DNA of 64,000 bases. It comes from an uncultured virus (IMG/VR IMGVR_UViG_3300048442_000810) (lineage: Duplodnaviria > Heunggongvirae > Uroviricota > Caudoviricetes). Each line of letters begins with the position of its first letter. The first letter of the stretch is position 1. This document shows positions 8,501 to 63,628 of the stretch, piece by piece. The notes beneath the pieces are model-generated. The model saw only the letters and a list, made by a program, of their open reading frames with translations, was not told the DNA's origin and did not search any database. Position numbers and translations under genes: made by a program. The stretch is from the IMG/VR virus record IMGVR_UViG_3300048442_000810; one strand, written 5' to 3'.

Positions 8501-11500
8501 AACCGGTGCTCAGGGTACACAAGGTATTCAAGGTAGAATAGGAACTACAGGTTCTCAAGGAGCAACGGGAAGTCAAGGTACTCAAGGAATTCAAGGTAGA
8601 GGAGGTCCACAAGGTGCTACAGGTACACAAGGAACTACAGGTTCGCAAGGTACTACCGGAGCAACAGGAAGTCAAGGAGCCCAAGGAACAAAAGGAACGC
8701 AAGGTGCCACAGGTTCTCAAGGAATAAAAGGTGATACAGGAAGCCAAGGTACTCAAGGGCTTCAAGGTAGAGCAGGAAATACAGGTTCTCAGGGTGCAAC
8801 AGGTTCTCAGGGAACAACAGGAACTCAAGGTGCTACCGGAAGTCAAGGTGCTACCGGAAGTCAAGGAACTACGGGAACACAAGGAACTACGGGAACTCAA
8901 GGAGCAACAGGAACACAAGGTGCCACAGGTAGCCAAGGTAGAACAGGTGCTCAAGGAACTACGGGAACACAAGGAACAACAGGAACTCAAGGTGCCACCG
9001 GAACTCAGGGAACAACAGGAACTCAAGGTGCCACAGGTAGCCAAGGTGCTACAGGTGCTCAAGGGCAAAAAGGTGCACAAGGTGCTACAGGTTCGCAAGG
9101 AACTACAGGAACTCAAGGTGCAACAGGTAGTCAAGGTATAAAGGGTGCTCAAGGTGCCACAGGTGCTACCGGAAGTCAAGGAACTACGGGAACTCAAGGT
9201 GCTACCGGAAGTCAAGGAACTACGGGAACTCAAGGAGCAACAGGTTCTCAAGGTACTACAGGTAGCCAAGGTAGAACAGGTGCTCAAGGAACAACAGGAA
9301 CTCAAGGAACTACCGGAACACAGGGTATAAAAGGTGACACAGGTTCACAAGGTACGCAAGGATTACAAGGAAGAGCAGGAAATACAGGTTCGCAAGGTGC
9401 CACAGGAACACAAGGAACTACCGGAACTCAAGGAGCAACGGGTGCTCAAGGAACTACGGGTGCTCAGGGTTTAAAAGGTAATCAAGGTACTACAGGAGCA
9501 ACCGGTTCGCAAGGTGCTACAGGTGCTCAAGGAAGAACAGGTACAGGTGGTACACAAGGAACAACAGGTTCTCAGGGTGCAACAGGAAGCCAAGGTATAA
9601 AAGGTGCACAAGGAACAACCGGAACTCAAGGAACTACAGGTAGTCAAGGAACTCAAGGTATTCAAGGTATAAAAGGTAATATTGGTGGAACAGGTTCTCA
9701 AGGTGCTACAGGTGCTCAAGGTACTACAGGTTCACAAGGTACTAGAGGAACACAAGGAACAACCGGAACTCAAGGAACAACAGGAGCAACAGGAAGTCAA
9801 GGGGCACAAGGAACTAAAGGAACTCAAGGTGCTACCGGTTCTCAAGGAACAAAAGGCGATACAGGTTCTCAGGGAACTCAAGGGCTTCAAGGTAGAGCAG
9901 GAAATACAGGTTCAACAGGTTCACAGGGAGCCACAGGTTCACAGGGAACAACAGGTAGTCAAGGTACCACAGGTTCACAAGGGGCTACAGGTGCTCAAGG
10001 GCAAAGAGGTGTAACAGGTTTAACAGGTAGCCAAGGTGCTACGGGTGCTCAGGGTACAACAGGTAGCCAAGGTACGACAGGTTCGCAAGGAACAAAAGGC
10101 GATACAGGTAATACAGGGTCGCAAGGTGCTACAGGTGCTCAAGGAAGAACAGGTACAGGTGGTACACAAGGAACAACAGGTTCTCAGGGTGCAACAGGAA
10201 GTCAAGGTATAAAAGGTGCACAAGGAACAACCGGAACTACAGGTTCAACAGGTTCACAAGGTGCTACAGGTTCGCAAGGAACAAAAGGTGCTCAAGGTAC
10301 GACAGGAACTACAGGCTCTACAGGTTCTCAAGGTGCAACGGGTGCTCAAGGACAGAGAGGTGTAACAGGATTAACAGGTAGCCAAGGTGCCACAGGTAGC
10401 CAAGGTGCCACAGGTGCTCAGGGTACAACCGGAACTACAGGTTCAACAGGAAGCCAAGGAGCAACAGGTGCACAAGGACAAAGAGGTGTAACAGGTTTAA
10501 CGGGTAGCCAAGGTGCCACAGGTTCTCAGGGAACAACCGGAACTACAGGGGCAACAGGTAGTCAAGGGGCTACAGGTGCTCAAGGAAGAACAGGAACAAC
10601 CGGTTCAACAGGTAGCCAAGGTGCAACAGGTTCTCAAGGTACGACAGGAACTACAGGTTCAACAGGTTCGCAAGGGACAACAGGTGCAACAGGTAGCCAA
10701 GGTGCTACGGGTGCTCAAGGGCAAAGAGGTACTACCGGTTTAACAGGTTCTCAAGGAGCAACAGGTTCACAAGGAAGAACAGGAACTACAGGTTCAACAG
10801 GTTCGCAAGGAACTCAGGGACTTCAAGGATTAAAAGGTACGACAGGTAATACAGGTTCGCAAGGTGCTACGGGTGCACAAGGACAGAGAGGTGTAACAGG
10901 ATTAACAGGTTCGCAAGGTGCCACAGGTGCTCAGGGTACGACAGGTACAACCGGTAATACAGGTAGCCAAGGAGCAACAGGTTCTCAAGGAAGAACAGGA
11001 ACAACAGGTAATACAGGTAGTCAAGGTACGACAGGTGCAACAGGTAGCCAAGGAGCAACAGGTGCTCAAGGACAGAGAGGTACTACCGGTTTAACAGGGT
11101 CGCAAGGTGCTACAGGTTCGCAAGGAAGAACAGGAACTACAGGTTCTACAGGAAGCCAAGGAGCAACAGGTGCAACGGGTTCAACAGGTTCGCAAGGTAC
11201 TCAAGGATTAAAAGGAACTACAGGTTCCACAGGTTCTCAGGGTGCTACAGGAACAACAGGTTCAACAGGAAGCCAAGGTGCTACAGGTGCACAAGGAAGA
11301 ACAGGAACAACCGGTTCAACAGGTTCGCAGGGTACTCAAGGATTAAAAGGAAATACAGGAAATACAGGTAGCCAAGGTACAACCGGTGCTACGGGTGGAA
11401 CAGGTTCTCAAGGTGCTACAGGTGCACAAGGACAAAGAGGTACTACCGGTTTAACAGGTTCTCAAGGTACAACAGGTGCTACAGGTGGAACAGGTTCGAC

Positions 11501-12638
11501 AGGTAGCCAAGGTACTACGGGAGCCACAGGTGCACAAGGAAGAACAGGAACAACCGGTTCAACCGGTTCAACAGGTTCGCAGGGTACTCAAGGACTAAAA
11601 GGAAATACAGGAAATACAGGTAGCCAAGGTACAACCGGTGCTACGGGTGGAACAGGTTCTACAGGTTCGCAAGGTGCGACAGGTGCTCAGGGACAAAGAG
11701 GTACTACCGGTTTAACAGGGTCGCAAGGAGCAACAGGGTCGCAAGGAAGAACAGGAACAACCGGTTCAACAGGTAGCCAAGGAGCAACAGGTGCTACGGG
11801 TGGAACAGGTGGAACAGGTTCGCAAGGTACTCAAGGATTAAAAGGTAATACGGGTAATACAGGTTCAACAGGTTCTCAAGGAGCAACAGGTGCTACGGGT
11901 GGAACAGGTGGAACAGGTTCTCAAGGTGCAACAGGTTCGCAAGGAAGAACAGGAACAACCGGTTCAACAGGTTCGCAAGGAACTACAGGTGCTACGGGTG
12001 GAACAGGTGGAACAGGTTCTCAAGGTGCTACAGGTGCACAAGGACAAAGAGGTGTAACAGGATTAACAGGTTCGCAAGGAACTACAGGTACAACGGGGTC
12101 TACAGGTTCAACAGGAAGCCAAGGTACTACGGGTGCTACGGGTGGAACCGGTTCGCAAGGTGCACAAGGTAGGACAGGAACTACAGGTTCAACAGGAAGC
12201 CAAGGTGCTCAAGGATTAAAAGGTAATACGGGTGGAACAGGTTCTCAAGGAACTACAGGTGCAACGGGGTCTACAGGTTCAACAGGTTCTCAAGGAACTC
12301 AGGGACTTCAAGGAAGAACAGGTACAACCGGTAATACAGGTAGCCAAGGTGCAACAGGTTCTCAAGGTAGGACAGGTACGACAGGTACTCAGGGTAGGAC
12401 AGGTTCAACAGGTTCAACGGGTTCTCAAGGTTCTACAGGAACAACCGGAACACAAGGTTCTACAGGAGCAACAGGAGGTTCGCCTGTTTTTAGTAGTGCT
12501 AGTTCTACCTCACTCCAAAGAAATGGATTTAATACAAGTACACCTTCTGCTACAGGTCTTGCTCCGGCAGGTTGGATAATAGTTACTGCTAGTAATGGTA
12601 CAAGTTATTACTTACCTGCTTGGATATATGATAAATAA
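5553..12638 (+). CDS. Giant collagen-like fibre protein (2361 aa)
   Basis: About 2280 residues of Gly-X-Y ([12 protein letters not shown]); 52-aa C-terminal domain ending [20 protein letters not shown]. Confidence 0.92.
5617..12479 (+). repeat. Degenerate 9-bp-period coding repeat (Gly-X-Y triplets)
   Basis: GGN-NCN-CAA / GGN-NCN-ACA periodicity throughout; boundaries approximate. Confidence 0.9.
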
Positions 12639-16918: not shown

Positions 16919-17128
16919 TTATATATTAAATCGTGAAACATACCTGTCAAACCATTCATCAAAATTTAATTTATTGTCCTTATCTAATCTATTATTTGTA
17001 CGGTATCTATAATAATCTATTGATGTATTTTTAATAAGAGTATAACCTATGACTTGAAATTTATCTTTAAACTCTTCAAAAAAAATATTTGCCTCTTCTA
17101 AACTTTGTGAAGATTTATTTTTTTCCAT
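16919..17128 (-). CDS. Hypothetical protein
   Basis: Shares NFDEW with the adjacent ORF. Confidence 0.6.
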   Translation of the reverse strand: MEKNKSSQSLEEANIFFEEFKDKFQVIGYTLIKNTSIDYYRYRTNNRLDKDNKLNFDEWFDRYVSRFNI

Positions 17129-18158
17129 TTTTCTTTAATTTTTCAATAGACTTCATATTATCTACTATTTTCTTCATCTGCTTATCAGTATATTTTTTAG
17201 TAGTTTTTGTTTCTTTTATTTCTGCCAAATGAATATTAGCTGATTTAACTTTAGGGTCTAATCCCGGAAGTATAGGCTCAAACTCTACTTTTATTTGTTT
17301 TAAGTCATCCATTGTTTCTTCAAATCCCGGAATATCCCCTTCCCAATCAGTATGCTCTGCCTGTTCTTCAATAGTGGCTCCTTCATCTTCTTTCATAGCT
17401 TTTTCAAAAAGACTTGCAGTAGTTTTAGGTTTTGTTTCTATAACTATAGGCTGATTATTATCATCTAACCTCATAGCCCCTCCTCCTTCTACTACATTAT
17501 CATAAGCTATAACTTTAGCCATATTTAAGTTCTTAGGTAGTAGTTTGCATAATTGTTTAAAGCAGGTTTTCTTTAGCATCCAATTCTCAGGGTCTTTGGG
17601 TGAAAACCATATAGAACCATTACCTGCCTTTGAAAGTGCTTGTATGGCTCTTAAATCATCCATATTCATAACTTTAAAGATAGGCTCTTGGTTGGAAAAT
17701 CTTACTACACAATATACTGCGATTAATGCCCCTCTCTTTACTGAAGTAGGTTTATGAGATAAAGTAGGAGTTAATCCTAGTTCATATTCAAACTCATCGT
17801 TCTCATAAACACATTCACTTGTTATATTTTGAACATTAGGATTTCGATATAATAATTTACTTAATCCTTGATAACCTATTTGAAATTGACATTCATTTCC
17901 ATAAGGTATTAACCAACATTCTCCCATTTGAGCAGTTGGAGATAATCCAAATTCCGCACAAGTTAAAATTGAAGAAAATACAGATGCCGGATTTTTAGTA
18001 AATACTTGAAGTAATCTTGAATTTCTTTTTATTTGATTAACCGCCATATGCATAAACTGCTGAGGGTTAATTTCTTGTTCTTCTAAAAGGTCCTTTATAG
18101 TTTGTAGATAATACTTACTAAGTTGACTTTCAAATTTTAATGCTATTTCTTTTGACAT
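17115..18158 (-). CDS. recT: RecT family single-strand annealing protein
   Basis: S....I...A..GL.P....G.C.LIPY....QFQIGYQGL, VYENDEF, M.KKT...L.K.LP. Confidence 0.9.
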   Translation of the reverse strand: MSKEIALKFESQLSKYYLQTIKDLLEEQEINPQQFMHMAVNQIKRNSRLLQVFTKNPASVFSSILTCAEFGLSPTAQMGECWLIPYGNECQFQIGYQGLSKLLYRNPNVQNITSECVYENDEFEYELGLTPTLSHKPTSVKRGALIAVYCVVRFSNQEPIFKVMNMDDLRAIQALSKAGNGSIWFSPKDPENWMLKKTCFKQLCKLLPKNLNMAKVIAYDNVVEGGGAMRLDDNNQPIVIETKPKTTASLFEKAMKEDEGATIEEQAEHTDWEGDIPGFEETMDDLKQIKVEFEPILPGLDPKVKSANIHLAEIKETKTTKKYTDKQMKKIVDNMKSIEKLKKNGKK

Positions 18159-21229: not shown

Positions 21230-22060
21230 TTAATCTCCTATATTTTTAGTTATATGCTTGATTGTTGTACTAAACCAAACTTCACTTACTTCAGGAACCT
21301 TTACTTTTTCTTTACAATTTTCATTCAAAAAACATTTTGCACATCTTGAAATATTAGGGATTGCTTTAAAACCTGTTTTAAAATTGTGCATTAGGAAATT
21401 TAGACCTACTCTTATATCATTTGCGTGTTCTTCATATAACTCTTCTTCTATGTGAACTTTAATAATTTTGAAATCGTGCTGATTCGTAGTAGAGAAAACC
21501 CAAAAATAAAAGTCTAAATCTTCTCCGTGCAACTCTTTATATAGCCATTTATAGTGTAATGCCTGAATCAATAAGGTTAATTTTGGTCTAAATTCACCTG
21601 CAAGGTGCTCTGTATTCCACCCAAAATCATTCCATTTGTCATCAAATAATGCCGTAGTTTTTAGGTCAATGATTGATTTTTTGCCATTCACTTTAGCAAT
21701 AATATCAGCAGTTCCTGTTATGTTTCCCCAATTCATACTTACTCCTGACTGAATATCAGTTACATTATAATGCTTTATAGCCTCTTTATAATTTTCAACT
21801 TGATTTAGCATTCTTTCATATGCTACAGATAGTTTTCCGCTTTTTAAAACTTTTGGCTCAGGTACTTCAGGATGGTATGCCGGTAATGCTCCCGTACATT
21901 TATATTCAAACCAATTACCTAATGCTTGAGCATCAGTTGTGAATCCTTTTGCCCCTTTGATATATAGGGCTTCAACTTTTAAACCACATTCTTTTTTTTC
22001 AGCATATTTAGTTAGTGCTTTTAAAAGAGATTGAGATATAGATAAATTATCAACTTTCAT
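21230..22060 (-). CDS. PD-(D/E)XK exonuclease (RecE/RecB-like partner of RecT)
   Basis: GTADII...IIDLKTT, Q...Y, C-terminal CAKC....C. Confidence 0.8.
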   Translation of the reverse strand: MKVDNLSISQSLLKALTKYAEKKECGLKVEALYIKGAKGFTTDAQALGNWFEYKCTGALPAYHPEVPEPKVLKSGKLSVAYERMLNQVENYKEAIKHYNVTDIQSGVSMNWGNITGTADIIAKVNGKKSIIDLKTTALFDDKWNDFGWNTEHLAGEFRPKLTLLIQALHYKWLYKELHGEDLDFYFWVFSTTNQHDFKIIKVHIEEELYEEHANDIRVGLNFLMHNFKTGFKAIPNISRCAKCFLNENCKEKVKVPEVSEVWFSTTIKHITKNIGD

Positions 22061-25959: not shown

Positions 25960-27321
25960 TTACTCTTTTTCGATTGGGAAATCGTGCTTTTTGAATAATT
26001 TTCTTGCACCTTGCTCGGTATCAAGTTGATGCTGAACAAACTCCGGTGATGGTATAAATAGGTTTGTTCTTTGGAATGTACTTCCTACCATATCGAACTG
26101 AGGCATTTCCTCTACCTTTTCTTTTGAGAAGCAATCATAATTAATCATCATTTGCTTGATGTATATTAACTTTGATTTAATTTGGTCTTGCCATTTAGGA
26201 TTTTTTCCTGCATTTGAAGTAGATACCGCAGATACAGAATTTCCTGATTGATTAGAAAACTCTGATTTTGATGGTTTACCATCTTTTATCCATCTTAATT
26301 TTTCACTTAAATGCTTACTTCTTTTCATTAAGAAATCACAACCATACTTATCATATCCTTTTTCTAAACTATCTACGAAATCAGGAGTTATATAATCCTT
26401 GTTTAGTTTTGGTTGTTTTACTTTGGCAATCAAAGGAGTTGCTATATCTATATATACATAGTCTAGTATTAACCTTACCGTTGTTAAAGGAAGTAAATTA
26501 TATTTTATTTTCGTAAAACCATCGAGTATGTACCCTTTTCCTTTTGGTGTAATAATGTAATTTTGAGATTGATATGGGTCAATAGTCGGTGTAAGTACCT
26601 TTTGATATACTTTACCTGTAGCTAATGTTCTATCAAATAAAAACGGCTCTAATATTTGTTCTTGATTTTCAGAAAATATTTGAAAATTCTTTATGTCGTA
26701 TGTCCTCTGAATTGTACTATACAAAAAGTCGTTGTAAGGGAAATTAGAAGTAGATATTACAGAAATATTGGGATTTGAAGGCAAAGTAGGTGCTGCGGCT
26801 GATGCTGAAGGATATACTTGTATTGGTAGCCAAATTGCTCCTCCGGTTTGACCATTTAATAATATAGATTCTACCCCATAATTATACTGAGCAGTTGTAG
26901 CAATATTTTGTGCAGCTATATATGCAGGGTCTACAATAACTCTAATTACAAAACTTGTGGATTCAAGACCATAAGGTCCATCTACTGTCCATTGTCCTAT
27001 TACGGCAAATGGGTTAGCTGCATCATTTAAATATGTAACTAATTCAGCAGTAGATATATTTGATAATTTTGGGTCGGCAAGAGAACCAACTATAAATGTA
27101 CTACCATCTGCTCTAAAAATTCTTATTGACACAGAACCATTAGAGGCTACAAGTTTAGGATTCCACCAATCACCAAGAGTATATATAGGTGACCAATTAG
27201 ATTCAAAGTTCCAAACAGTTTCCGTGCTTGTATTGGGTGCACCTAAAGCTGAAGTTTCAAAAACTGAAAATTCTTGAACTTCTGTAGAATTATTTCTAAA
27301 ACTAAATACCGATGCATCCAT
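25960..27321 (-). CDS. Large paralog of the capsid candidate with an inserted domain (turret/penton candidate)
   Basis: Y.DFL, Q.LE, QK.LTPTIDPYQ.Q, DGFT shared with 59778..60527; about 150-aa insertion after the first strands; C-terminal extension containing FSNQSG. Confidence 0.6.
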   Translation of the reverse strand: MDASVFSFRNNSTEVQEFSVFETSALGAPNTSTETVWNFESNWSPIYTLGDWWNPKLVASNGSVSIRIFRADGSTFIVGSLADPKLSNISTAELVTYLNDAANPFAVIGQWTVDGPYGLESTSFVIRVIVDPAYIAAQNIATTAQYNYGVESILLNGQTGGAIWLPIQVYPSASAAAPTLPSNPNISVISTSNFPYNDFLYSTIQRTYDIKNFQIFSENQEQILEPFLFDRTLATGKVYQKVLTPTIDPYQSQNYIITPKGKGYILDGFTKIKYNLLPLTTVRLILDYVYIDIATPLIAKVKQPKLNKDYITPDFVDSLEKGYDKYGCDFLMKRSKHLSEKLRWIKDGKPSKSEFSNQSGNSVSAVSTSNAGKNPKWQDQIKSKLIYIKQMMINYDCFSKEKVEEMPQFDMVGSTFQRTNLFIPSPEFVQHQLDTEQGARKLFKKHDFPIEKE

Positions 27322-28534: not shown

Positions 28535-28699
28535 TTATTTTTTTGTTTTTTTGTTTTTCTCTGTTTTTTGGGCTTCTGCTACTTTAGATTTTATTGCTCC
28601 CGATAATCCTGTGTTTCCTTGAAATCCTTGATTTCCTATATTGCCTGAATTACCTGACCTTAAACCTAATCCTTTATTTGCTTTACCCGATAATCCCAT
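28535..28699 (-). CDS. 54-aa mini-collagen-like basic protein (not in ORF track)
   Basis: MGLSGKANKGLGLRS-GNS-GNI-GNQ-GFQ-GNT-GLS-GAI-K...; TAATG coupling with the upstream gene. Confidence 0.6.
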   Translation of the reverse strand: MGLSGKANKGLGLRSGNSGNIGNQGFQGNTGLSGAIKSKVAEAQKTEKNKKTKK

Positions 28700-29619
28700 T
28701 ATTTTCTTCCTAAAAATATGCCAAGAAGAATACCTGCTAAACCTCCTATTAACATTGAATTATCACCTTTTTTAGTAGAACTTTTATCCATCTTCTCTGC
28801 ATATTTATTGTCTTTGTCTACTTTTGCTTGAGTTTTAGCTTTATTTTTTTCATAATCAGATAAATCTTCCCATTCTTTATCAGAATATCCCCAATATTTT
28901 TTGGTATCAGAAACACTTAATTGACCTTTTTTCTTAACTTCTCCACCTTTTGCATATTTATTATCTTTTCTTCTGTAAAAATAATCTTGTGTATCTTTTA
29001 TGCCATAAGTATCAACATTATCAAACACACCTTTCTTTTCAAGTCGTTTTTCTATCATACTTGCACCTCTAAAAGTGTCTGAACTACCAACTACCTCTCC
29101 ATCATAACCACTATCTTTGTGAACAATGTATCTTTTGACTTTACCACCTTTTGCAAATTCAGAAAGAGGTTTATCAGGAAACATACGAGTTAAATTTTTA
29201 AGATGAGCATAAAACTTTTTATCTCTTTCATCTTTTAACCCTGTTGAAAATTCTAATTCATCTGCTAATTGGCTTGGTGTAAAATTGTTTGCTATCGCAT
29301 AATCATACATTCCCTGATAACCCTCTAATTCCTTTTTTACACTACCACCTTTTGCAAATCTCCCCATTTTTAATTCTCTTCCTTCTTTATAGTTTTCACC
29401 ATCAAACCATTTAGATATTTTCTCAATACCTTTTTGTAGTTTTTCTTTTAAATCTTCTATACTATCAAAAGTGAATTTGTCTTGTGTGTAATCTTCGTAA
29501 TTTCCTGTTCTGTGATAAGGTGCTTCCATATTTACATTACCGGTAAGAACTATAGTATGCTTACCATCAATACCTCTGCTATTATCAGGATTATAGTAAA
29601 ATACTTCTTGAAAACTCAT
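28699..29619 (-). CDS. KGG-linker polyprotein, C-terminal part with membrane anchor
   Basis: Three [FY]AKGG linkers; ends MLIGGLAGILLGIFLGRK; overlaps 29591..31174 out of frame. Confidence 0.75.
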   Translation of the reverse strand: MSFQEVFYYNPDNSRGIDGKHTIVLTGNVNMEAPYHRTGNYEDYTQDKFTFDSIEDLKEKLQKGIEKISKWFDGENYKEGRELKMGRFAKGGSVKKELEGYQGMYDYAIANNFTPSQLADELEFSTGLKDERDKKFYAHLKNLTRMFPDKPLSEFAKGGKVKRYIVHKDSGYDGEVVGSSDTFRGASMIEKRLEKKGVFDNVDTYGIKDTQDYFYRRKDNKYAKGGEVKKKGQLSVSDTKKYWGYSDKEWEDLSDYEKNKAKTQAKVDKDNKYAEKMDKSSTKKGDNSMLIGGLAGILLGIFLGRK

Positions 29620-31174
29620 CTAAATCTTCTGCCTCATCCATATATCCTGCATCCTGTAAAGAAGAGTAATCAACATTTTCAATACCTCCTAATTCTTTTA
29701 CTATGTCAGGATATTCTTCTTCAAATCTTTCTTTACCATATTCATAATTTAGATTTTCTACTCTTTCTAATTCAGCATCTAAAGTATTTGTAGGCAATGA
29801 TTTTCCTGAGCCTGTTAGATAGTTTCCGTATGTGAAAAAACGGTATTCATAGCCTCCATCAGTAAAAGGTATAAAGCCATCTCGACTCTTATATTCTACC
29901 TCTTCTCCTTTTATTTCTTGACCTTCATATTCTTGATTAGCATCTTCTAAAACATCTTCTAACTCATCTTTTAATACCTCAACTATTTTTTCTCTACTTA
30001 TAGTTTCTCCACCCTCGGCAAACCCTTGAGGGAATTTAGAACTATATATTTCATCGTTATATCGAGATGCATTATCAACTACTCTTACCCAAGTATTAGA
30101 ATCTTCTATTTCTCTTGCTTTTGATATTGCTCTTTTTTTATTTGGTGCCTCATCATCTAAATACACTACATCGTAGTTTTCATCAAAATCATAATCATCT
30201 TCGTTGTTGTAAACTCTAATAATATATTCTTTGTTTTCATCTAAATCTCCACCTTTTTCAAAACTTCTAATCACGAAAATATCTCCATCATTAGACTTGT
30301 ATTTCATTTTAGGAAAATACTTTTGTTTAGCTTCTTCAAAATTATCTCTATTCTGTCTTTCTGAATCAACAAAAATCACTTTATAATTATCTCCTGCTAA
30401 TACTTTTATTTCTTCTACATCATAATCATAATCTCCTCCGGACTGCCAATCATCTCCGAACTTTTGCTTTGCTAAATCAATTAAACCGTTTTCACTAACA
30501 AAATCATCTGTTGATGTGTAATTTCCACTTAAATCCTTTCCTAAACTGCCACCTTTTGCATATTTAGATAAATCGTATTCTTTTACTGTTCCTCCCTTTT
30601 TATAGTTTTGAAAATAATGTCCATCATATTCGTTATAATTGTTTATTGATAAATCTCTTCCCAAAGCCTCATAGTCAAAATAATATTCAGGATTTGAAAC
30701 ACCTTCAATACCTCCTACATTATCAACATAATTTTCTCCTAATTCGTAATCCCCATCATATTGTCCTATATATCTATCATCTACAAATTCCTCTAAATTA
30801 TCAGGGCTAAAATCATTTGCTATGGATTGTAATACTTCAGCAGGAATTCCTTTTTCTTCTGATATTTTATGAGTATCAATAATAATATCATAATCTGCCT
30901 CTCCCATATACTCACTATATAGGCTGCTATCAAAATTTTCGTAGTCGTGAATTGAGTGCTCAGTTTCTTCTCCGTTATGATACTTCTTGCTATATTCTTT
31001 CATAAGAGAAGCAATTTTATCGCTAACTTCTTCTCCACTATCATAATCAGTTAAATCAACCCACTCACCAACTAACCTACCTTCATTATAAGATTTTAAG
31101 TCTGCAACATAAATTTTTGGAGTATCATCTTTAAATTCTCCTCCTTTATTATATTTATATTTTTTCATTTCCAT
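29591..31174 (-). CDS. ardA: KGG-linker polyprotein, N-terminal part containing an ArdA anti-restriction domain
   Basis: IYVADL..YNEG.LVGEW...IHDYE...YFDYEALGRDL (ArdA signatures), flanked by YNKGG and YKKGG; three further linkers. Confidence 0.8.
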   Translation of the reverse strand: MEMKKYKYNKGGEFKDDTPKIYVADLKSYNEGRLVGEWVDLTDYDSGEEVSDKIASLMKEYSKKYHNGEETEHSIHDYENFDSSLYSEYMGEADYDIIIDTHKISEEKGIPAEVLQSIANDFSPDNLEEFVDDRYIGQYDGDYELGENYVDNVGGIEGVSNPEYYFDYEALGRDLSINNYNEYDGHYFQNYKKGGTVKEYDLSKYAKGGSLGKDLSGNYTSTDDFVSENGLIDLAKQKFGDDWQSGGDYDYDVEEIKVLAGDNYKVIFVDSERQNRDNFEEAKQKYFPKMKYKSNDGDIFVIRSFEKGGDLDENKEYIIRVYNNEDDYDFDENYDVVYLDDEAPNKKRAISKAREIEDSNTWVRVVDNASRYNDEIYSSKFPQGFAEGGETISREKIVEVLKDELEDVLEDANQEYEGQEIKGEEVEYKSRDGFIPFTDGGYEYRFFTYGNYLTGSGKSLPTNTLDAELERVENLNYEYGKERFEEEYPDIVKELGGIENVDYSSLQDAGYMDEAEDLDEFSRSILL

Positions 31175-32071: not shown

Positions 32072-32737
32072 TTAATTCATAATTCTAACATCATATATAT
32101 TCTGATTGGCGGCTATTATTCTTCTATTAACCTCATCCCAATTTATAATTTTAAATATATTTTTGATGTATTTCGTTCTGTCTGCATCGTATTTCAAATA
32201 ATATGCGTGTTCCCACACATCTACTCCTAATAAAGGATATGATTGATACTCAGGCATATATGGATTGTCTTGATAAGGGGTAGCTAGTATATTTGTACTG
32301 CCATCTCTATTCATTACCCACCATACCCATCCTGAGCCGAATCTTTTCTGCGATGCTTCAATAATAAATTCTTTAAATTGTCCGTAAGTACCAAAGTCTT
32401 GAATAATTTTAGCCAATGAAACACCGTGTGGTGGATTTGACTTTTTTGATGGATTAGGTTTAAGCATTTTCCAAAACATAGAATGATTTACATACCCTCC
32501 TCCATTATCTCTAATTTCAATTGGGTATCTATCTATGTTCTGCATTACTCTAATAACCGGGTCAGTAATATCATATTTGTCTACTGCTGCGTTAAACTTT
32601 TTTAAATACCCTAAATAATGTTTATTGTAGTGTATTTGCATAGTTTCCTCATCAATATATGGCTCTAAACCGTTATATTTATAAGGAAGCCTTACAGGAG
32701 AAAAATGTATTAAATCATAGTCATCATATTTATTCAT
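32072..32737 (-). CDS. sod: Fe/Mn superoxide dismutase
   Basis: LPY.Y..LEPYI..ETM..H..KH, NH..FW, FGSGW.W, DVWEHAYY. Confidence 0.95.
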   Translation of the reverse strand: MNKYDDYDLIHFSPVRLPYKYNGLEPYIDEETMQIHYNKHYLGYLKKFNAAVDKYDITDPVIRVMQNIDRYPIEIRDNGGGYVNHSMFWKMLKPNPSKKSNPPHGVSLAKIIQDFGTYGQFKEFIIEASQKRFGSGWVWWVMNRDGSTNILATPYQDNPYMPEYQSYPLLGVDVWEHAYYLKYDADRTKYIKNIFKIINWDEVNRRIIAANQNIYDVRIMN

Positions 32738-33166
32738 TTTCAAACTTTTTATTGCGTGTTAAGTTGCGTGTGGTAACATACGAACCTCTGAACAAAGCAA
32801 AAGAACCAATTACACACACGACTAACAAAGCACTTAGAACAACTTTATTATTCACTTATTACTTACACTTATAGATTAAGTAACCTAACATTCCAATGAT
32901 AATTACATTGTGAACATTGTTACCACCTAAAAAATCTGCACTTTTAATATCAAACATTTTTTTTAAATTTTTGGGTTAATACTCGTTTTATTTACTCTCC
33001 TGCAAGTTATATTTTTTAATGAGATTTTTAGCGATAGTTTGTAACTTCTTTTTATCGGCTCTTGCAGGTGGGAGATTGTCGTTAGTAATATTAAGTTTAG
33101 ACTCTTGCATACTTGCAATTGTATATTTTAAATTCTTAACGATTTCTCTTGCCCTATTTACACTCA

Positions 33167-34660: not shown

Positions 34661-35074
34661 TTAATAATTATTTAATTTTTGTTTGATAGGTATTTCTAAA
34701 ACTTCGTTACCTTTAAATGTATATTCATTTTCAGGGTACATCATTTGCGAGTTACCTAAGTTGTCTATTCCCCAAACAGGAAAATCCACATCTTTCATTG
34801 TGATTCTTCCATTTGGAATGAGATTATAAGGTCTGTTTAAATCCTTACTATCTCTTTTATAACCTGTAACAGAATATATGTCACCATTAAATCCTAATGA
34901 TGCGGCTCCTCCAATTGGTAAGCCTCCTATTACTCCACTACTAGGTACAGTCACAACATATGGTTGTGATTGTCTATTAGAATCAAAAAAGTCATCACCT
35001 TCGTTAAACCACGAGTTATTCGTGTCTAACAAATTAGATACATCAGCATAGCCATCTTTAATAATACTATCCAT
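34661..35074 (-). CDS. Hypothetical protein with leader motifs and a conserved-looking C-terminal module
   Basis: SWFNEG and GFNG motifs; IP...ITMK.V.FPV.GIDNLGN.QMMYP..EY.F.G module. Confidence 0.65.
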   Translation of the reverse strand: MDSIIKDGYADVSNLLDTNNSWFNEGDDFFDSNRQSQPYVVTVPSSGVIGGLPIGGAASLGFNGDIYSVTGYKRDSKDLNRPYNLIPNGRITMKDVDFPVWGIDNLGNSQMMYPENEYTFKGNEVLEIPIKQKLNNY

Positions 35075-37727: not shown

Positions 37728-38225
37728 TTATACTGTTGCAGGTTTCTTTTTTAATGCTACATATGCTACCACTCCTATAACTAATGCCCCAACTCCTAAA
37801 GCAACATAGGTTAATGTTTTATCTTCTGTTTTTCTTGCAGCACTTTTCAAATTTGCTTCTTGAAACATTTTTTCAATATTAGCATCAAATTCTGCTGCTT
37901 GTTCATCTAATTTTTTCTGAGAACAGTCTAGTTCATCCCATTTATTTTTAAAGTCTAATCTTCTATTTTCTAAGGCTCTTGAATTTCTTGTGATTACTCT
38001 GTCTTTAGCACCACTATTAGCATTTTTAGTCAAATCCTTATCAATAACACCAATAGTATCATCAATGGTATCACAATCCATCTCATCTTCTAACTTGTAC
38101 TTATCGTTATATCTGTCTACTGCCTTGTTATATCTTTCTTTTTCTGCTTTTTTAGGTGCAAAAAAATCCTTGAACCAAGTTCCTCCTATAAATCCGGGGT
38201 GATTAAACCATAATTCTTCTTGCAT
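37728..38225 (-). CDS. Tail-anchored helical protein, NHPGF family
   Basis: LWFNHPGFIGGTWFKD; paralog of 53866..54459 and 55912..56601. Confidence 0.7.
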   Translation of the reverse strand: MQEELWFNHPGFIGGTWFKDFFAPKKAEKERYNKAVDRYNDKYKLEDEMDCDTIDDTIGVIDKDLTKNANSGAKDRVITRNSRALENRRLDFKNKWDELDCSQKKLDEQAAEFDANIEKMFQEANLKSAARKTEDKTLTYVALGVGALVIGVVAYVALKKKPATV

Positions 38226-38451: not shown

Positions 38452-40718
38452 TACTTTCTTCCTAAAAATATACCAAGAAGAATACCTGCAATTCCTCCTA
38501 TCAGCATTGTGTTATGCTCTTCATTTCCTTTTTTCTTTACCTCTCCACCTTTTGCATAACCTCTTTCAGCTTTTATTTCTTCAATAGCATCTTGATATGT
38601 TTCATCCGTAGGAGTTCCATCTTCATTATATCCATCAAGTTCAGGATGTTTTTCAAGCCATTCTATTATTTCTTGATGTGATATTTCTCCACCTTTTGCA
38701 AAATCTTCTTTATCAAGTTCTAATGCCTCTAATAATTCTTCTTTAGTGTTTATGGGTGTCGGTGTATTCATAGAATTTCCTAACCATATTTCATAAAGTT
38801 CTTCTCTTGATGGGTTGTTTTCAAGAACTTCCTCTATGTGCGAAACATCAATACCATCATTATTCATATCATCTATATACATACGAACTATCTCCTCACT
38901 ATTTACATTATCCCAATCTCCCTCGCCCTTATCTTGTAAATAATCATAAAATTCTCCAAAAGACATATCCTTAATAGAGCCACCTTTAGCAAAGTCCAAT
39001 TTAGGTGTCCACTCTACTACTTTATATTGAATAGAACTACTCATTCTTTGCAGTTTATTTTTTTCGTCTTGAGCATCTTTGTATGATAGATATTTTTTGC
39101 CACCCGTTAAAAACTTCTCATCTTTCCATTTTGGAACTCCTAAATCATATTTACTTTTTTCTTGAATTTTGTAAATCTTTCCTTGTGTTTTACCACCTTT
39201 AGCAAATCTGTTTTTTTCTTCTACATATTTTAAACCTTGATTAGATAGTTTATATTCTCCTTTATTTATTAATCTTGCCCAATTTTCAGCTTCTTTTTTT
39301 GTTTTATAAGAAGGGTTTGAGTATGTACTTCCATATTTTTTTAAGTAGTATTTTCCGTTAGTTCCATAAACAGATACTTCCCCACCTTTTGCAAAAGTTT
39401 CTAAATTTTTAACCATTGCTTCAACTCTTCTTCCATTTGTTGCTTCAACTATTGCCACACCCCCATCATCTCCATCTGCTCTTAATTTTATTATTTCTTC
39501 TACTTTACCACTTTGTCCTTTTCCCATACCACTTATTGAATGTGGGAAATTGTCTTTTGTTGCTCTAACCACATCTCCTACTTCAATTTTACCACCTTTA
39601 GCATAAGATTGAACACCATCTTCATCTACTTCCCAAAGATAACCTTGTTGACTCATAATTTGAGATTTATATGCACCATCTTCAATACTTGAAAGTGCAA
39701 TTTCTAATGCCTCACTATATGTTTTTACTTCTTTATCTAAACTTGGCTTATTGCTATTGTATCTTGCTTTACTTTTCCAAACCTCAACTGAAAAAGGACT
39801 ATCTTTTTTAGGCTCTACTTCGCCACCTTTTGCGAACTCTAATTTCTCTTTTTTATAGACTTCATATGGAAATAAAAATTGAGCAGAATACAACTTCATT
39901 TCACCTTTTTTCCAAAGTTCTATTTCTTTTTCAGTAGGTGCAGAAAACTCATCCCAATCACTACCTTTTTCGTGCTTTACAAGAGCACTTGTTTGAATAG
40001 TATCTTCATCAACATAAAAATCCTCTTCTTTCATATCTGCGTATGAAACAAAATCATTTAAAGTTTCAAATAAATCTTTTTTATTAGTAAACTTAGTTTT
40101 ATATGGAAAATCATTTTCACCTAAGTAATATGAATGAAATTGGTCTTGCTCTCCCTCTTCATAAGAATCTTCGTAAAAAGTAACATCAGCACCCTTTATT
40201 TGGTATGTTTTTCCAACTTCCCCACCTTTTGCATAATCTTCGTGTTCTATTCCAAAATTATCATAATCCTCAATATCGTTTTTACTATCTATTAAGCCCT
40301 CTGATTCTTCGCTAATGTTTATTCCATAAATCTCTATTTTATCCCAATTTTTCTCTGCAAACGACTTGCTTACTTCTTGAAATTTATATCCATCAGAGAA
40401 TGTTATAAAACCGCCTTTAGCAAATTTTGCTTTTTGTTTCTTAGCATCTTGAACGGTTTTGTATATGCCTCCTAAATCTTTCTTGATGTCTTTAATTTTG
40501 TTCTCTCTGTCCTTAATAGATTTCTTTTCTCTATCAATGCCACTTTCTAAATTATTAATTTGATTTTCGGAACTTGTAATATCTTTACGAATGCTTTTTA
40601 TCTCATCTCTACCTTCATTGATTTCTTTATCGCCTTTTTTAGCAACATTACCCATAGCTTTAGCAAGTTCAATTTGACCTCCTCTTTCGTAACTATTATT
40701 TCTATTTCCTCTTTTCAT
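38451..40718 (-). CDS. KGG-linker polyprotein (755 aa) with membrane anchor
   Basis: Nine [FY]AKGG plus one YERGG separating unrelated modules of about 45-130 aa; ends MLIGGIAGILLGIFLGRK. Confidence 0.8.
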   Translation of the reverse strand: MKRGNRNNSYERGGQIELAKAMGNVAKKGDKEINEGRDEIKSIRKDITSSENQINNLESGIDREKKSIKDRENKIKDIKKDLGGIYKTVQDAKKQKAKFAKGGFITFSDGYKFQEVSKSFAEKNWDKIEIYGINISEESEGLIDSKNDIEDYDNFGIEHEDYAKGGEVGKTYQIKGADVTFYEDSYEEGEQDQFHSYYLGENDFPYKTKFTNKKDLFETLNDFVSYADMKEEDFYVDEDTIQTSALVKHEKGSDWDEFSAPTEKEIELWKKGEMKLYSAQFLFPYEVYKKEKLEFAKGGEVEPKKDSPFSVEVWKSKARYNSNKPSLDKEVKTYSEALEIALSSIEDGAYKSQIMSQQGYLWEVDEDGVQSYAKGGKIEVGDVVRATKDNFPHSISGMGKGQSGKVEEIIKLRADGDDGGVAIVEATNGRRVEAMVKNLETFAKGGEVSVYGTNGKYYLKKYGSTYSNPSYKTKKEAENWARLINKGEYKLSNQGLKYVEEKNRFAKGGKTQGKIYKIQEKSKYDLGVPKWKDEKFLTGGKKYLSYKDAQDEKNKLQRMSSSIQYKVVEWTPKLDFAKGGSIKDMSFGEFYDYLQDKGEGDWDNVNSEEIVRMYIDDMNNDGIDVSHIEEVLENNPSREELYEIWLGNSMNTPTPINTKEELLEALELDKEDFAKGGEISHQEIIEWLEKHPELDGYNEDGTPTDETYQDAIEEIKAERGYAKGGEVKKKGNEEHNTMLIGGIAGILLGIFLGRK

Positions 40719-40720
40719 AA

Positions 40721-41758
40721 TTATCTTCCTATAAAAAATGCACCAAGTAAAATACCTGCTATCCCTCCTACAAGTAAAGTTTGATTATTATTATCTTCAG
40801 TATTATCAACTTTTTTTGCTTCTACTTTTTCAATTTTATCATCACATTTATCTTTAGTGATAGTTGCTTTTCTTAAAGCACCTTTTTCCTTCTTTAGTTT
40901 AGCAATTTCTTTGTCTTTTTCTCTTCTTAGCTTAACATATCTATCTCTGTCAATTTTACCTTCAACAGAGCCTCCACGAGCCATTTTTATTTTCTCTATG
41001 CTTCTAACTCCATTTGCAAGTTGCTCTCCTTTGTTAAAATCTTCAATAGATTTATAATTAGTTTCAAAACCTTCATTATGCTCATTAATAAATTCCATAG
41101 CTTCTGATTTTGTTAGATATTCAGTAGCATCTTCATCATCAGATTCACGATATACATATCCACCTTTAGCCATTTTTCTTTTGCCTTTATCCATTGTAGA
41201 TACATCAGCATACTTTCTTCTACCCATAGATTTTTCCATTCCTGCACTTTCTCTCATTCTACTGTCTAAAGATTGAGATTTTTTTCCTCTGTTTCTTTCT
41301 CCTATGCTTTCTCTATCTCTGTCATCATAACCCTGAGTTTTTCCACCTTCCATAAACATTCTATCGCCTTTGTCCATAGTGTCTACACTTGAATATGCTC
41401 TACGACCTAGATTTTTATTAGCTGCTTTGCTTTCATCTCTTCGGTCTTTTAATGTTTGTGTATAATTGCTTTCTCTTCCAAGTCTAGTTCCTAAATCTTC
41501 ATTTAACTTGTCGTTATACCCTTGTGGTTTATCGGTTTCTCCTCCTTTAGCCATCTTTTTCTTATTTGCTATTTGTTGCATATTTAAAGCAAATTGTGCT
41601 CTTTCACGAGTTCTTTCTGAAAAGTCAGTTGGATTATCTTTTACTTTTTTAGCAAAATCTTGAACGGACATACCTGCATCAGTAGCTTGTTTAGTAAACG
41701 CACCAACAGTTCCTTTTTTTTCCATTTCTTTATCTACATTTTGAATCCAATCTGCCAT
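40721..41758 (-). CDS. KGG-linker polyprotein (345 aa) with membrane anchor
   Basis: MAKGG x2, FMEGG, MARGG; two paralogous QGY.D...TMDKG modules; ends LLVGGIAGILLGAFFIGR. Confidence 0.8.
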   Translation of the reverse strand: MADWIQNVDKEMEKKGTVGAFTKQATDAGMSVQDFAKKVKDNPTDFSERTRERAQFALNMQQIANKKKMAKGGETDKPQGYNDKLNEDLGTRLGRESNYTQTLKDRRDESKAANKNLGRRAYSSVDTMDKGDRMFMEGGKTQGYDDRDRESIGERNRGKKSQSLDSRMRESAGMEKSMGRRKYADVSTMDKGKRKMAKGGYVYRESDDEDATEYLTKSEAMEFINEHNEGFETNYKSIEDFNKGEQLANGVRSIEKIKMARGGSVEGKIDRDRYVKLRREKDKEIAKLKKEKGALRKATITKDKCDDKIEKVEAKKVDNTEDNNNQTLLVGGIAGILLGAFFIGR

Positions 41759-42367: not shown

Positions 42368-42848
42368 TTATCCTTCAGGGTTAAATGTTGCTTCCGGCAA
42401 CTCCGGTCTTGGAGGTGCAGGAGCCATTGGAGCCTCTGCTACAGGTGAAGGCACAGTGTGGGGTAGGAGTATAGTCTACTTCTCCACCGTGGTCAAACTC
42501 TGCTCCATCTTCTTTCTCAAAGAATAATTTATATCCTACATAAACAATTCCTAAAAGCACCAATGCATCAAAAATCTCTCTCTTGTTTCTTTGAAAGAAA
42601 TTTCTTTTCCTAGACAATTCTTTTTTCTTGTATTGTTTTATGCTACTTTTTTGCATATCCTCAACCCAATCTGAATTTCCATCATCGCTGACTTCCATTT
42701 TTCCATCAACGACATAAGTTTCTTCAGAATTTTTTTGAGTGTCAGAGCCTTTAGGTTCAGATAGTTTCTTGTCTATAAGACCCCATCTTTCCTGTTCTTC
42801 TCTGTCATCTACAAAGCCATTACTTTTAAAACCTGCATCTATACTCAT
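42368..42848 (-). CDS. Membrane protein with probable frameshift near 42458
   Basis: Track ORF stops at 42381, but the +1 frame gives Pro-rich TVPSPVAEAPMAPAPPRPELPEATFNPEG ending in TAATG coupling; contains FDHGG. Confidence 0.6.
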
Positions 42849-55303: not shown

Positions 55304-55573
55304 TTAATTATCCATTACACCGTTTTTGAAACGGTATGCCCCAAGTTTTAATCCTTCTACTCCTCCAAACTTAGATTTTGTTTTACAATCTTTATTTGTG
55401 AAAATTCCATCTCCACTATCATCCATACTGTCACAACCTCTGTCCCAAGTTAGTACAGGCTCATATGAATACTTATCTCCTCCTACAGTAATAACTGCAT
55501 CTCCGGATTGATTAAACCAAAGTTCTGTACTATTTTGTGCTCCTGATTGATTAAACCATAAATTGTTTTCCAT
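55304..55573 (-). CDS. Small protein with tandem LWFNQSG motifs
   Basis: Start at 55573: MENNLWFNQSGAQNSTELWFNQSG. Confidence 0.65.
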   Translation of the reverse strand: MENNLWFNQSGAQNSTELWFNQSGDAVITVGGDKYSYEPVLTWDRGCDSMDDSGDGIFTNKDCKTKSKFGGVEGLKLGAYRFKNGVMDN

Positions 55574-55583
55574 TTTCTTTTTT

Positions 55584-55907: not shown

Positions 55908-55911
55908 AATT

Positions 55912-57164: not shown

Positions 57165-57995
57165 TTATTTACTTGCTCTCAAATTAGGTGTACTATTCTG
57201 AGTGCAAAATTTATTTCTTTCAAAATTTGTTATAAACTGATTTAAAATGTCAAATCTTTCTTTATTTTGAGGTGTTGGAGTGTCCTTAAATGTTGTAAGG
57301 AAACTTTGATAAGCCTCTATTCTTGGATAACCAAGAGCCAAATAAATTAATAATCCATTCAAATCTGCTTCTGTTTCATCTTCCATATTCTCATTCAAAT
57401 AAAAATGAGAAAACTCGTGTAATAGAATTGCCATTCTCATTGGAACAGTAAACTTTTTATAGTGTGCTTTGCTTACTTGTATAATTCCTTTTGACTGACT
57501 AATTCTTGCAGGGGTTTGTATTACCAAACCTCTTTTTGTTCTAATATCATCAAAGTAATCTATTCTAAAATTACCCTCATCTGAGATATATGTGCTTCCG
57601 TTTGGAAACTTTCCTGCACTTAATATTCCTGCGTTGTCTGAAAATTGTTGAGCAAAATTTGCAAAATCTCTTATTTTTGGATTACTCCAATCAACACAAT
57701 CCATTTTTCTTTCTAATGGTCTAGCATCTATTTTTACAACTTTAAATGATGCATCTTGACCCTTTTTCAAATTACCGTTAGCTTTATTATATACACTTAT
57801 AAGTGCTTCATAAGGAGATAAAGGCATTCTAACGAAGAATCTTTGCTTACCATCAATAGTTGCATATCTATTAGTATAATCAGTATTAGGCTTATTAATA
57901 TCCTTAACTACTATCTGAATTTTTTGAGGACTATTTGTTACGACCTCTATCATAATAGTTAACGATTTTTGCTTTGTTTTAAATAAAATATTCAT
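57165..57995 (-). CDS. HEXXH zinc metalloprotease (maturation protease candidate)
   Basis: ILLHEFSH followed by ETEAD third-ligand motif. Confidence 0.7.
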   Translation of the reverse strand: MNILFKTKQKSLTIMIEVVTNSPQKIQIVVKDINKPNTDYTNRYATIDGKQRFFVRMPLSPYEALISVYNKANGNLKKGQDASFKVVKIDARPLERKMDCVDWSNPKIRDFANFAQQFSDNAGILSAGKFPNGSTYISDEGNFRIDYFDDIRTKRGLVIQTPARISQSKGIIQVSKAHYKKFTVPMRMAILLHEFSHFYLNENMEDETEADLNGLLIYLALGYPRIEAYQSFLTTFKDTPTPQNKERFDILNQFITNFERNKFCTQNSTPNLRASK

Positions 57996-59777: not shown

Positions 59778-60527
59778 TTAACCCTGTAATGCACGAGCAA
59801 CTCCTTGACCAAGAACAATCTTGTCTTGTCTTACAACATTTGGATTACCATAACCACGAGCAATTGAATTGCCTGTTAGAGCACGACCTTGAGAAACAGT
59901 TTCAGATGGGAACAAGTAGACTTTTAAAGTCGCTTTTGCTGCAATACTGTTAACTGTTAATGTAGTAAAGCCATCCCACTTATAGGTATGCTTTAATACA
60001 GTAATGTCTGTTTGGTTTTGGTAAGGGTCAATTGTAGGAACAAGAGTTTTTTGTTGTTGATTACCATTAGAGTCAACTACTTTTACTACGATAGTTTCTA
60101 GGACCTGTGTTGAGCCTCCATCACTTTGTAGGTAAGTTAATCCAACCACGAATGGTTTAGATGAACTTTGCCATAAAAATTCAAGATAAGTTACACCTGA
60201 AATAGCCATATTATATAGGATATTTGCCGTGTTACCTGCTTCACCTGCCGGAATACCTCCACCTGCTGCGATTGCGGTTACCTTAGTTATCGTGTTATAT
60301 GCTCCACCAATTTCAACAGATGCTACATCTGCTGCCGTAGAGTTATATAATGAGATAATGTAAGGTTGTGATGAACTAGCATCAGCCGAACCCATTGCGT
60401 TTAAGTATTCTTCTTCAGAACCACCAAAGTCAAAAGCATCATCCCAATCATTTACACCATTAGCTGACATAAATTCGTTTGAAATGTTTTCTTCTGCATC
60501 AGAGAAATAACGGTTTAAATTTTCCAT
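59778..60527 (-). CDS. Putative major capsid protein (single jelly-roll-like) with acidic leader
   Basis: Beta-rich core of about 165 aa with two paralogs in the window; long leader and own terminator suggest high expression; 2.3 kb from the packaging ATPase. Confidence 0.6.
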   Translation of the reverse strand: MENLNRYFSDAEENISNEFMSANGVNDWDDAFDFGGSEEEYLNAMGSADASSSQPYIISLYNSTAADVASVEIGGAYNTITKVTAIAAGGGIPAGEAGNTANILYNMAISGVTYLEFLWQSSSKPFVVGLTYLQSDGGSTQVLETIVVKVVDSNGNQQQKTLVPTIDPYQNQTDITVLKHTYKWDGFTTLTVNSIAAKATLKVYLFPSETVSQGRALTGNSIARGYGNPNVVRQDKIVLGQGVARALQG

Positions 60528-62809: not shown

Positions 62810-63628
62810 TTATGTTAGGAAATATTGCTGCCTTATTCTAGCCCTTACTTGTCTAATAGCTTCATCTCTATCAATTTTAGAGCCATCACTTAAACTTTTT
62901 TTATTAATAGCAGGTTTTACTACGGAATTAAAATTTTTAGATAAGTATTCATCTATTCCATTATTTATAATTGCTTCAGACATTTTTCCTTTTAATTTTT
63001 CTTCATCTAAATCTACATACATAAAATATCTAGGATTATCATTAAAATACTGTGTGTTTACTATATTTTCAGCTATACTAAACATTTCGTATTTATCAGG
63101 AAATTTATTTCTATGTCTTTCAATACTATCTGAGTTTTTATGAAACCTCAACCAATTAGCATTTTGCCATACTTTAGTTGTTATTCTTCCAATACTCTGA
63201 AAATGCATAATAATATCTAAGTCTGTGTGTCTGTTGGAGCAAATAGCACCTACAATATCTGTTGGAAGATGGTCACCTACATACTTATTAATGTCCTCAA
63301 TCAATAACATACCCCCTCTAAAATAGTGTAGTATATCCCATAATTGATTTGCTATTTCTTTTAAAGTAAGTCTTATTCCTGTTTGCTCATTAAAAGGTCT
63401 TACCCTTCTTATTTCTGCGGTAGGCATAACAGAAAATCTTACTAAATCTTTCATAGATATAGCTTTATAATCTACAAACTCATCATTAACATCTAAAATT
63501 AATACTCTACGAGGAAGAACCCCTTTTGATGGATTTCCATAAACATAGGATTCAATAAGTATTTTAGTTTGATAAGTTTTACCAATCCCTTTTTTTCCTA
63601 CTGCCATTCCTAGCTTTGGTTCTCTCAT
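62810..63628 (-). CDS. A32/P9-like FtsK-HerA genome-packaging ATPase
   Basis: Walker A GKKGIGKT near the N-terminus, Walker B LLIED, then RH......HFQ (Arg finger plus Gln sensor); 272 aa with no nuclease domain. Confidence 0.8.
   Translation of the reverse strand: MREPKLGMAVGKKGIGKTYQTKILIESYVYGNPSKGVLPRRVLILDVNDEFVDYKAISMKDLVRFSVMPTAEIRRVRPFNEQTGIRLTLKEIANQLWDILHYFRGGMLLIEDINKYVGDHLPTDIVGAICSNRHTDLDIIMHFQSIGRITTKVWQNANWLRFHKNSDSIERHRNKFPDKYEMFSIAENIVNTQYFNDNPRYFMYVDLDEEKLKGKMSEAIINNGIDEYLSKNFNSVVKPAINKKSLSDGSKIDRDEAIRQVRARIRQQYFLT

Follow-up and report, generated by a model that had tools for sequence, protein, structure and literature searches.

The ArdA-encoding gene

The window (the whole stretch of DNA analyzed here, 64,000 nucleotides from an uncultured virus, IMG/VR record IMGVR_UViG_3300048442_000810) contains a minus-strand ORF of 527 amino acids (29591-31174), in which an ArdA anti-restriction domain lies between two short peptides ending in Gly-Gly. 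The peptides listed in an earlier note on this DNA (IYVADLKSYNEGRLVGEW, IHDYE, YFDYEALGRDL, YNKGG, and YKKGG) are all found in this ORF. In close relatives, the full gene encodes 768-854 amino acids, of which this ORF represents the front half; their protein continues into what in the window is ORF 28699-29619 and ends in a hydrophobic tail. The gene is split in the window by a 32-nt deletion downstream of ArdA. The deleted nucleotides are present in all nine related loci that cover the site and in contigs of all three DNA runs; the split reflects either a rare variant or an error in assembly. Contigs of RNA library X15 also lie over the gene, although contigs cannot show transcription. The features of the locus and its surroundings are collected in Table 1.

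Table 1. Coordinates of the features discussed in the text
Coordinates	Strand	Feature	Basis
472-936	+	Paralogue of the probable capsid protein	
17115..18158	-	RecT recombinase	Pfam
21230-22060		PD-(D/E)XK nuclease	Pfam
25960-27321	-	Paralogue of the probable capsid protein	
28699..29142	-	Last two modules and C-terminal hydrophobic, membrane-anchor-like tail	
29143..29343	-	Optional 67-aa module, flanked by a 17-nt linker-encoding direct repeat	
29344..30007	-	Module 4, ~232 aa in relatives, acidic, frameshift-interrupted here	
29603..29609	.	Site of the 32-nt deletion, splits the gene into ORFs 29591-31174 and 28699-29619	Comparison with relatives
30008..30247	-	Module 3, 80 aa, acidic, ends FAEGG, no family	
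30248..30547	-	Module 2, 100 aa, ends FEKGG, no family, missing from P0004	
30548..30589	-	14-residue spacer ending YAKGG	
30590..30604	-	Downstream linker YKKGG, residues 191-195	
30605..31138	-	ArdA module, residues 13-190 (Pfam core 21-187)	Pfam, PHROG, PDB
31139..31153	-	Linker YNKGG upstream of ArdA (residues 8-12), preceded by a basic leader of 7 residues	
38451..40718	-	Second polyprotein with linkers (755 aa, 10 motifs), tail as in the ArdA polyprotein	
40721..41758	-	Third linker-punctuated protein, 345 aa, 4 motifs, hydrophobic tail	
57165..57995	-	HExxH...E zincin-like protein, candidate maturation protease	
59778..60527	-	Probable major capsid protein, acidic N-terminal arm	Predicted fold
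62810..63628	-	P-loop ATPase, weak HerA-type match; putative genome-packaging ATPase	

The Pfam ArdA model (PF07275) matches residues 21-187 of the ORF with 84 bits (cut-off 27; E 2.2e-23) and over profile positions 1-153 of 155, i.e., over all three ArdA domains. The match sits inside the two linkers, at distances of 9 (upstream) and 4 residues (downstream); random placement of an equally long stretch in the ORF produces a motif crossing 94% of the time. PHROG 2059 (anti-restriction protein) also matches the module (E 1e-25), as does the ArdA protein ORF18 of Tn916 (PDB 2w82; E 1.8e-8 with the single sequence and 4.7e-16 with a profile), which in the single-sequence search was the sole PDB sequence match at E<=1. 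The 178 residues of the module include 45 Asp/Glu versus 12 Lys/Arg, giving a pI of 4.05, whereas Asp and Glu make up 13% of the window proteome. Judged by its sequence, the domain is a genuine ArdA and a new member of a known family, and by itself it is ordinary.

In ORF18 ArdA, the essential residues include an anti-restriction motif (residues 126-140, with Y137 and I138) and a VF motif, and the protein forms a homodimer via domain 3 (L127, L134, and Y137), with a ribbon of acidic residues spanning the interface (McMahon 2009, PMC2731889). When the module is aligned to 2w82, Y137, D139, D146, and V130 are identical (Y165, D167, D174, and V159), whereas I138 is replaced by F166 and L127 by I156. 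The VF motif corresponds to YF at 187-188, as placed by comparison with the ends of stand-alone ArdA proteins. L134, in the dimer interface, is Pro162 here and Leu in 8 of 22 aligned relatives, and exact alignment was obtained for three of the seven interface acids. Since monomeric ArdA keeps its anti-restriction activity while losing anti-modification activity (Roberts 2013, PMC3906837), a Pro at this position need not abolish function. The N-terminal and C-terminal ArdA motifs are near invariant over 22 rows. The chain of stand-alone phage ArdA proteins stops 2-4 residues past the last-strand Phe, and YKKGG has its Tyr at that end position; thus, the linker starts where a natural ArdA protein stops.

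All 42 homologues have either an xxxGG peptide within 22 residues upstream of ArdA or the N-terminus there, and a linker at the position of YKKGG was found by pattern in 41 of the 42. The 14-residue spacer moves with the ArdA cassette and forms the end of the protein in many relatives, in which ArdA may be first, middle, or last. A hydrophobic tail is present in 13 ArdA-bearing homologues and absent from 29, some of which are fragments. Linker-type ArdAs clustered in a tree of 41 rows, in which long branches meet, compatible with a single origin or several. An ArdA query against viral_contigs returned no match. In a separate set of proteins (P0045-P0052), one of them encoded on a 430-kb contig, an ArdA with a duplicated inner segment is C-terminal and the chain is punctuated by xES motifs, which presumably resemble T4 gp21 sites. 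These are perhaps a parallel capture of ArdA by large tailed phages.

The view in the earlier note that ArdA is normally a stand-alone gene of conjugative elements was overstated. An ArdA-like match occurs in 141 of 50,697 phage records, so such genes are not special to conjugative elements, and ArdA within multidomain polyvalent proteins has already been published (Iyer 2017, PMC5512222). The fusion of ArdA into a polyvalent protein therefore has precedent.

Linker peptides and module exchange

ORF 29591-31174 has 6 motif matches versus a mean of 0.29 in shuffled sequences, and 6 were reached in none of 10,000 shuffles. One match, FTDGG (residue 437), is probably internal to a module because that module moves whole in P0004. 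Of the strict motifs in the window, 21 of 22 fall within four polyprotein ORFs. Linker-punctuated polyproteins are spread across the virus group, G008 having only 2 strict motifs. Another minus-strand ORF (42381-42848) has one FDHGG motif, and its last 30 residues look out of frame.

From the window and related loci, 57 motif-rich proteins were reduced to 45 non-redundant ones containing 292 motifs, with the consensus [FYM]-A-K-G-G-[EK]-[VILT]. At least 284 of the 292 have a hydrophobic residue or Thr at the second position after Gly-Gly, though this position lies outside the search pattern. The 118 copies of [FY]AKGG are encoded by 43 different DNA words, with synonymous codons varying at every position; it is therefore the peptide that is conserved. 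The codon of the first Gly is biased to GGT (216 of 292 versus 932 of 2,153 elsewhere). Some motifs stand back to back, separated by 6-14 residues.

Of 35 Pfam domain matches, 2 cross a motif versus 24.3 expected; this set excludes six ArdA rows that are near-duplicates, two secondary families that overlap others, and one match below threshold. Twenty-one of these rows are mutually related ArdA domains with no crossings; the 14 non-ArdA rows account for both crossings (~7 expected), which are atypical matches inside DUF2958. A number of large domains have no motif nearby, so the motif does not mark all borders. Of 439 internal ends of BLAST alignments, 279 are at most 8 residues from a motif versus 78 expected, a count in which the pairs are non-independent and the conserved motif itself attracts ends. 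The window and locus L009 are 99.6-99.98% identical, yet they differ by two whole in-frame modules (201 and 210 nt), bounded by linker-encoding repeats of 17 and 8 nt, respectively: L009 lacks the 67-aa module (29143-29343) and a 70-aa module of the second polyprotein (39390-39599). Run X1 holds both forms of the 67-aa module, at a depth of 30.4 for the skipped and 7.45 for the retained form. In L008, module 4 resides in the other polyprotein.

The Pfam crossings, alignment ends, and whole-module insertions and deletions bear out the earlier proposal that the linkers are module boundaries: the linker peptide marks module borders, and whole modules are gained and lost at linker-coding DNA. The RecT recombinase and the PD-(D/E)XK nuclease are a plausible engine of this shuffling. 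Because its modules are polymorphic within one sample, the array can be viewed as an arms-race locus trackable in metagenomes. The motif also provides an objective rule for splitting hundreds of uncharacterized viral proteins into single modules.

The 45 proteins yielded 267 modules of at least 40 amino acids, which form 145 families, 99 of them singletons; 56 modules are strongly acidic and 76 basic. Modules of relatives include ART-PolyVal, LPD11, RelA/SpoT, zeta-type kinase, N6-methyltransferase, and DUF2958 domains, and in the window's own ArdA protein ArdA is the sole named domain. The idea that the neighboring acidic modules are anti-defense proteins was not borne out, as they match no family; 15 module stretches of the window and the intact L009 homologue had no PHROG family below E 0.003. 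These modules are anti-defense candidates by association only, with indirect support from the named domains in modules of relatives, and ArdA would be a built-in positive control in an anti-defense screen.

The virus and its candidate proteases

The capsid candidate retrieves 62 viral loci, on contigs of up to 102 kb, and the main capsid paralogue has 870 homologues. The single-sequence model of this protein had a pLDDT of 34 and the alignment-based model a pLDDT of 70, the latter with one jelly-roll-like beta-sandwich at residues 52-210. VIA Z values of this model were 5.1-5.8 to capsid chains of PR772, FLiP, PBCV-1, faustovirus, and phiCjT23, and the best value, Z 6.5, was to a non-viral chain. 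Foldseek returned no match for the model at E<=0.001, the capsid profile had no meaningful match among PDB sequences and low scores only in the ESM Atlas, and a single-sequence query against viral_contigs gave no match. The P-loop ATPase is kept in 58 of the 62 loci; it matches Pfam DUF87 under the cut-off (E 9e-4) and, over the P-loop, a PHROG terminase weakly (E 2e-4). Pfam detected no portal, terminase, or HK97 families in 65 of the 79 listed ORFs of G005 and 59 of the 89 of G002, lists from which short or boundary-crossing ORFs are absent. A hydrophobic segment is present in 27 of 56 ORFs between 25.9 and 61 kb, where many proteins are short, and the window carries lysis, recombination, and fiber-like genes.

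We consider with moderate confidence that this is a large, tailless, membrane-containing bacterial virus. As would be expected for a relative of tailless membrane-containing viruses (Varidnaviria; single-jelly-roll viruses), the group has a putative jelly-roll-like protein, an ATPase with a weak HerA-type match, many small membrane proteins, and, in G005, inverted terminal repeats. Unlike them, it has genomes of 84-102 kb, and no adenain-type protease was found among the ORFs compared with Pfam; the maturation proteases of such tailless viruses are specific for Gly-Gly. In L017 and L018, the distance between ArdA polyproteins and the capsid gene is at most 10 kb. ArdA is accessory, as it is found in none of five complete relatives. 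No cultured relatives were detected by capsid or ATPase among 50,697 phage records, and no placement of this virus was found in Yutin 2018 (PMC5894146). Capsid homologues also occur in six bacterial genome bins of mixed phyla (L095-L100), two of them Bacteroidota and one including a 102-kb virus-like contig; they are probably mis-binned viruses. Weak hints point to a Bacteroidota host.

Several other genes were observed. The plus strand encodes a 2,361-aa collagen-like protein with G-x-Q repeats, probably a long fiber (5553-12638), and a small basic protein (2735-3013) found in 36 of the 62 loci, whose G005 homologue weakly matches DUF5754. An Fe/Mn superoxide dismutase gene (32072-32743, minus strand) lies amid structural genes. 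Relatives have a MoxR-like AAA ATPase and a conserved neighbor gene inside their polyprotein cluster (L079:18097-19497 and L085:10733-12142); the ATPase is missing from the window.

Searches with Pfam for the Gly-Gly proteases adenain and Ulp1 found none in 30 ORFs of the window and 124 ORFs of two relatives. The zincin-like gene is present in 51 of the 62 capsid-gene loci, with HExxH intact in all 51. Pfam gave weak zincin hints only for this protein, its profile had no match in PDB, and the ESM Atlas placed it in unnamed clusters, mostly labeled Uroviricota, that lead to the DUF4344 metallopeptidase at 0.87. G002 and G003 encode an LRAT/PPPDE-like cysteine protein that was discounted as the Gly-Gly protease; it did not turn up in the window, G001, G004, or G005. 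Homologues of this protein (L088:17728-18204 and L091:9515-9970) have a membrane tail, and the gene adjoins a minor jelly-roll gene in some relatives.

A further candidate is a domain of ~70 residues with near-invariant G, H, GG, E, E, and N, followed by the linker motif, which we refer to as the His/Glu domain (e.g., L079:14430-14705 in G005; 1,817 representatives). Ten of the 11 related virus records checked contain it, the exception being a fragmentary bin, and it was not found in the 64-kb window. Searches of Pfam, PHROGs, and PDB gave no significant match, with one member matching Peptidase_S26 at E 0.01. The top 150 bearers of the domain have 581 linker motifs versus 44 in shuffled sequences. 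The domain also matches near the C-terminus of Bacteroidota phage tape-measure proteins (18 records, E 2e-4 to 7e-2), and its profile matches three such proteins at E 2e-7, 1e-5, and 0.012; [FY]AxGG brackets or follows the domain in two of the three inspected. Because its His and Glu residues are invariant, we hypothesize that this domain may be a peptidase.

Function of the linker and of ArdA

We propose that the array is a recombination-shuffled cargo polyprotein which, when cut at the motif, would free ArdA to act against type I restriction, and we give this proposal about an even chance of being correct. Small independent modules would be strung on a polyvalent polyprotein via the consensus linker, and the repeated linker-coding DNA may provide micro-homology for RecT-type recombination. 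The polyprotein would be made late, held by its hydrophobic tail, and carried in the particle. A virus-encoded protease would cut it at the motif, the joint probably being the cutting signal, and the freed ArdA would mimic DNA and inhibit the next host's type I restriction enzyme ahead of viral gene expression. Provided that this cut does occur, a virion-borne ArdA would solve the problem of timing, as restriction would be blocked early enough. A late or virion context agrees with the many hydrophobic segments encoded between 25.9 and 61 kb and with the closeness of ArdA polyproteins to the capsid gene in L017 and L018. When PRD1 assembles, a tail-anchored protein has its cytoplasmic body left outside the virion membrane vesicle, away from the DNA, and this topology counts against the cut-cargo proposal. 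So do the lack of a known Gly-Gly protease among the ORFs compared with Pfam, the absence of the His/Glu domain from the window, the Pro at L134 and the partly aligned interface acids, the large domains distant from motifs and the scarcity of strict motifs in G008, the homologues without a tail, and the accessory nature of ArdA. The phage P1 proteins DdrB and DarA, which are cleaved and packaged, are a precedent for cut cargo, and some polyvalent proteins that are delivered uncut count against it (Iyer 2017, PMC5512222).

Alternatively, the motif may be left uncut and serve as a flexible joint and as a tag for packaging, sorting, or binding, with the polyprotein staying whole and ArdA active while fused. 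Monomeric ArdA is still anti-restrictive and homologues with long extensions may be active (Roberts 2013, PMC3906837), and N4 vRNAP, ArdC, and TraC1 are delivered unprocessed (PMC5512222). The Pfam searches of the 30 window and 124 relatives' ORFs found no protease of known specificity, and closely spaced motifs would fit a repeated binding tag. We nevertheless regard an uncut motif as rather unlikely, since an aromatic-x-x-Gly-Gly that is fixed and precedes a fixed hydrophobic residue looks like a protease site, the motif is placed at the natural C-terminal residue of ArdA, and there are two conserved candidate peptidases. Cutting at Gly-Gly is a property of adenovirus and ASFV proteases. That the motif is mainly a DNA-level recombination scar, with a functionless peptide and modules as tolerated passengers, would agree with module insertions and deletions finishing in linker-coding repeats and with the GGT bias. 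This explanation is largely weakened by the 43 DNA words for 118 identical peptides and by the presence of the same peptide behind the His/Glu domain in unrelated tailed phages, and we consider it improbable.

The target of ArdA may also differ. An ArdA-fold DNA mimic could act on a different DNA-binding host enzyme or serve as an acidic counter-ion in the particle, and the Leu-to-Pro change at the interface, the partly aligned interface acids, and the similar acidity of neighboring modules are compatible with such a role. In Fletchervirus, the ArdA-like gp119 inhibits endonuclease V, but it spans only the C-terminal 100 residues of ArdA (PMC13091555). The full-length, three-domain Pfam match and the near-invariant terminal motifs of the module make a different target improbable.

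Returning to the cut-cargo proposal, its parts can be compared with known systems. The module resembles ArdA proteins (PF07275; Tn916 ORF18; PDB 2w82, 7bto, and 7btr) in its three-domain match, strong acidity, and retention of most essential interface residues, and differs from stand-alone ArdAs of 160-190 aa in being an internal module of a viral polyprotein and in having Pro at L134. The polyprotein in turn resembles polyvalent proteins, which are multidomain conflict proteins with shuffled ArdA, ART-PolyVal, LPD11, and RelA/SpoT domains and for which processing by zincins has been proposed (Iyer 2017, PMC5512222). The ArdA described there occurs mainly in Firmicutes proteins beside ArdC-N, with the peptidase in the same chain (PMC5512222). 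Here, Pfam found no in-chain MPTase or ArdC-N beside ArdA in 60 proteins scanned, and the zincin is a separate gene. In addition, a fixed joint peptide and a membrane tail organize the array, whereas the words "linker" and "jelly" do not appear in the main text of that study (PMC5512222). P1 DarA and DdrB and T4 IPI are likewise anti-restriction proteins of the particle, with DarA and DdrB processed (PMC5512222); packaging is a prediction for the present virus, and the P1 and T4 systems belong to tailed phages, and their folds and signals are different.

Tape-measure proteins of Bacteroidota siphophages share the His/Glu domain, with [FY]AxGG bracketing or following it. Phage lambda gpH contains FATGG and YATGG and has no match to the domain profile. 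In Cellulophaga phage phi17:2, the protein gp41, which is annotated as structural, shows related motifs and matches the domain by pattern but not by profile. A 137-aa protein of the window (34661-35074, minus strand) matches the N-terminal domain of this gp41 (E 1e-4). Tape measures of T5 and lambda are cleaved during assembly (PMC10038345), and we found no literature tying this cleavage to AxGG or to the His/Glu domain. If the domain is the cutting enzyme, it would also bear on tape-measure protein processing. An extended version of the idea, in which the domain is an unrecognized peptidase cutting at [FY]AxGG and tailless viruses reuse a tape-measure signal to deliver shuffled anti-defense cassettes including ArdA, seems unlikely to us.

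The literature covered, mostly outside subscription journals, yielded no description of the linker or of this virus group. The combination apparent from the genomes, i.e., a fixed joint, a membrane tail, live module polymorphism, and a putative tailless-type virus as the carrier, likewise had no published description that we could find.

A second motif, [FYWM][SLFM]NxxG, was observed in the N-terminal arm of the capsid protein and in many small membrane proteins (25960-60527), with examples at 37728-38225, 55304-56601, and 59778-60527. It occurs 21 times versus 2.0 in shuffled sequences, for a pattern picked by eye after inspection. This motif is possibly a second cleavage or sorting signal, and it, rather than the linker, may be the site of the zincin.
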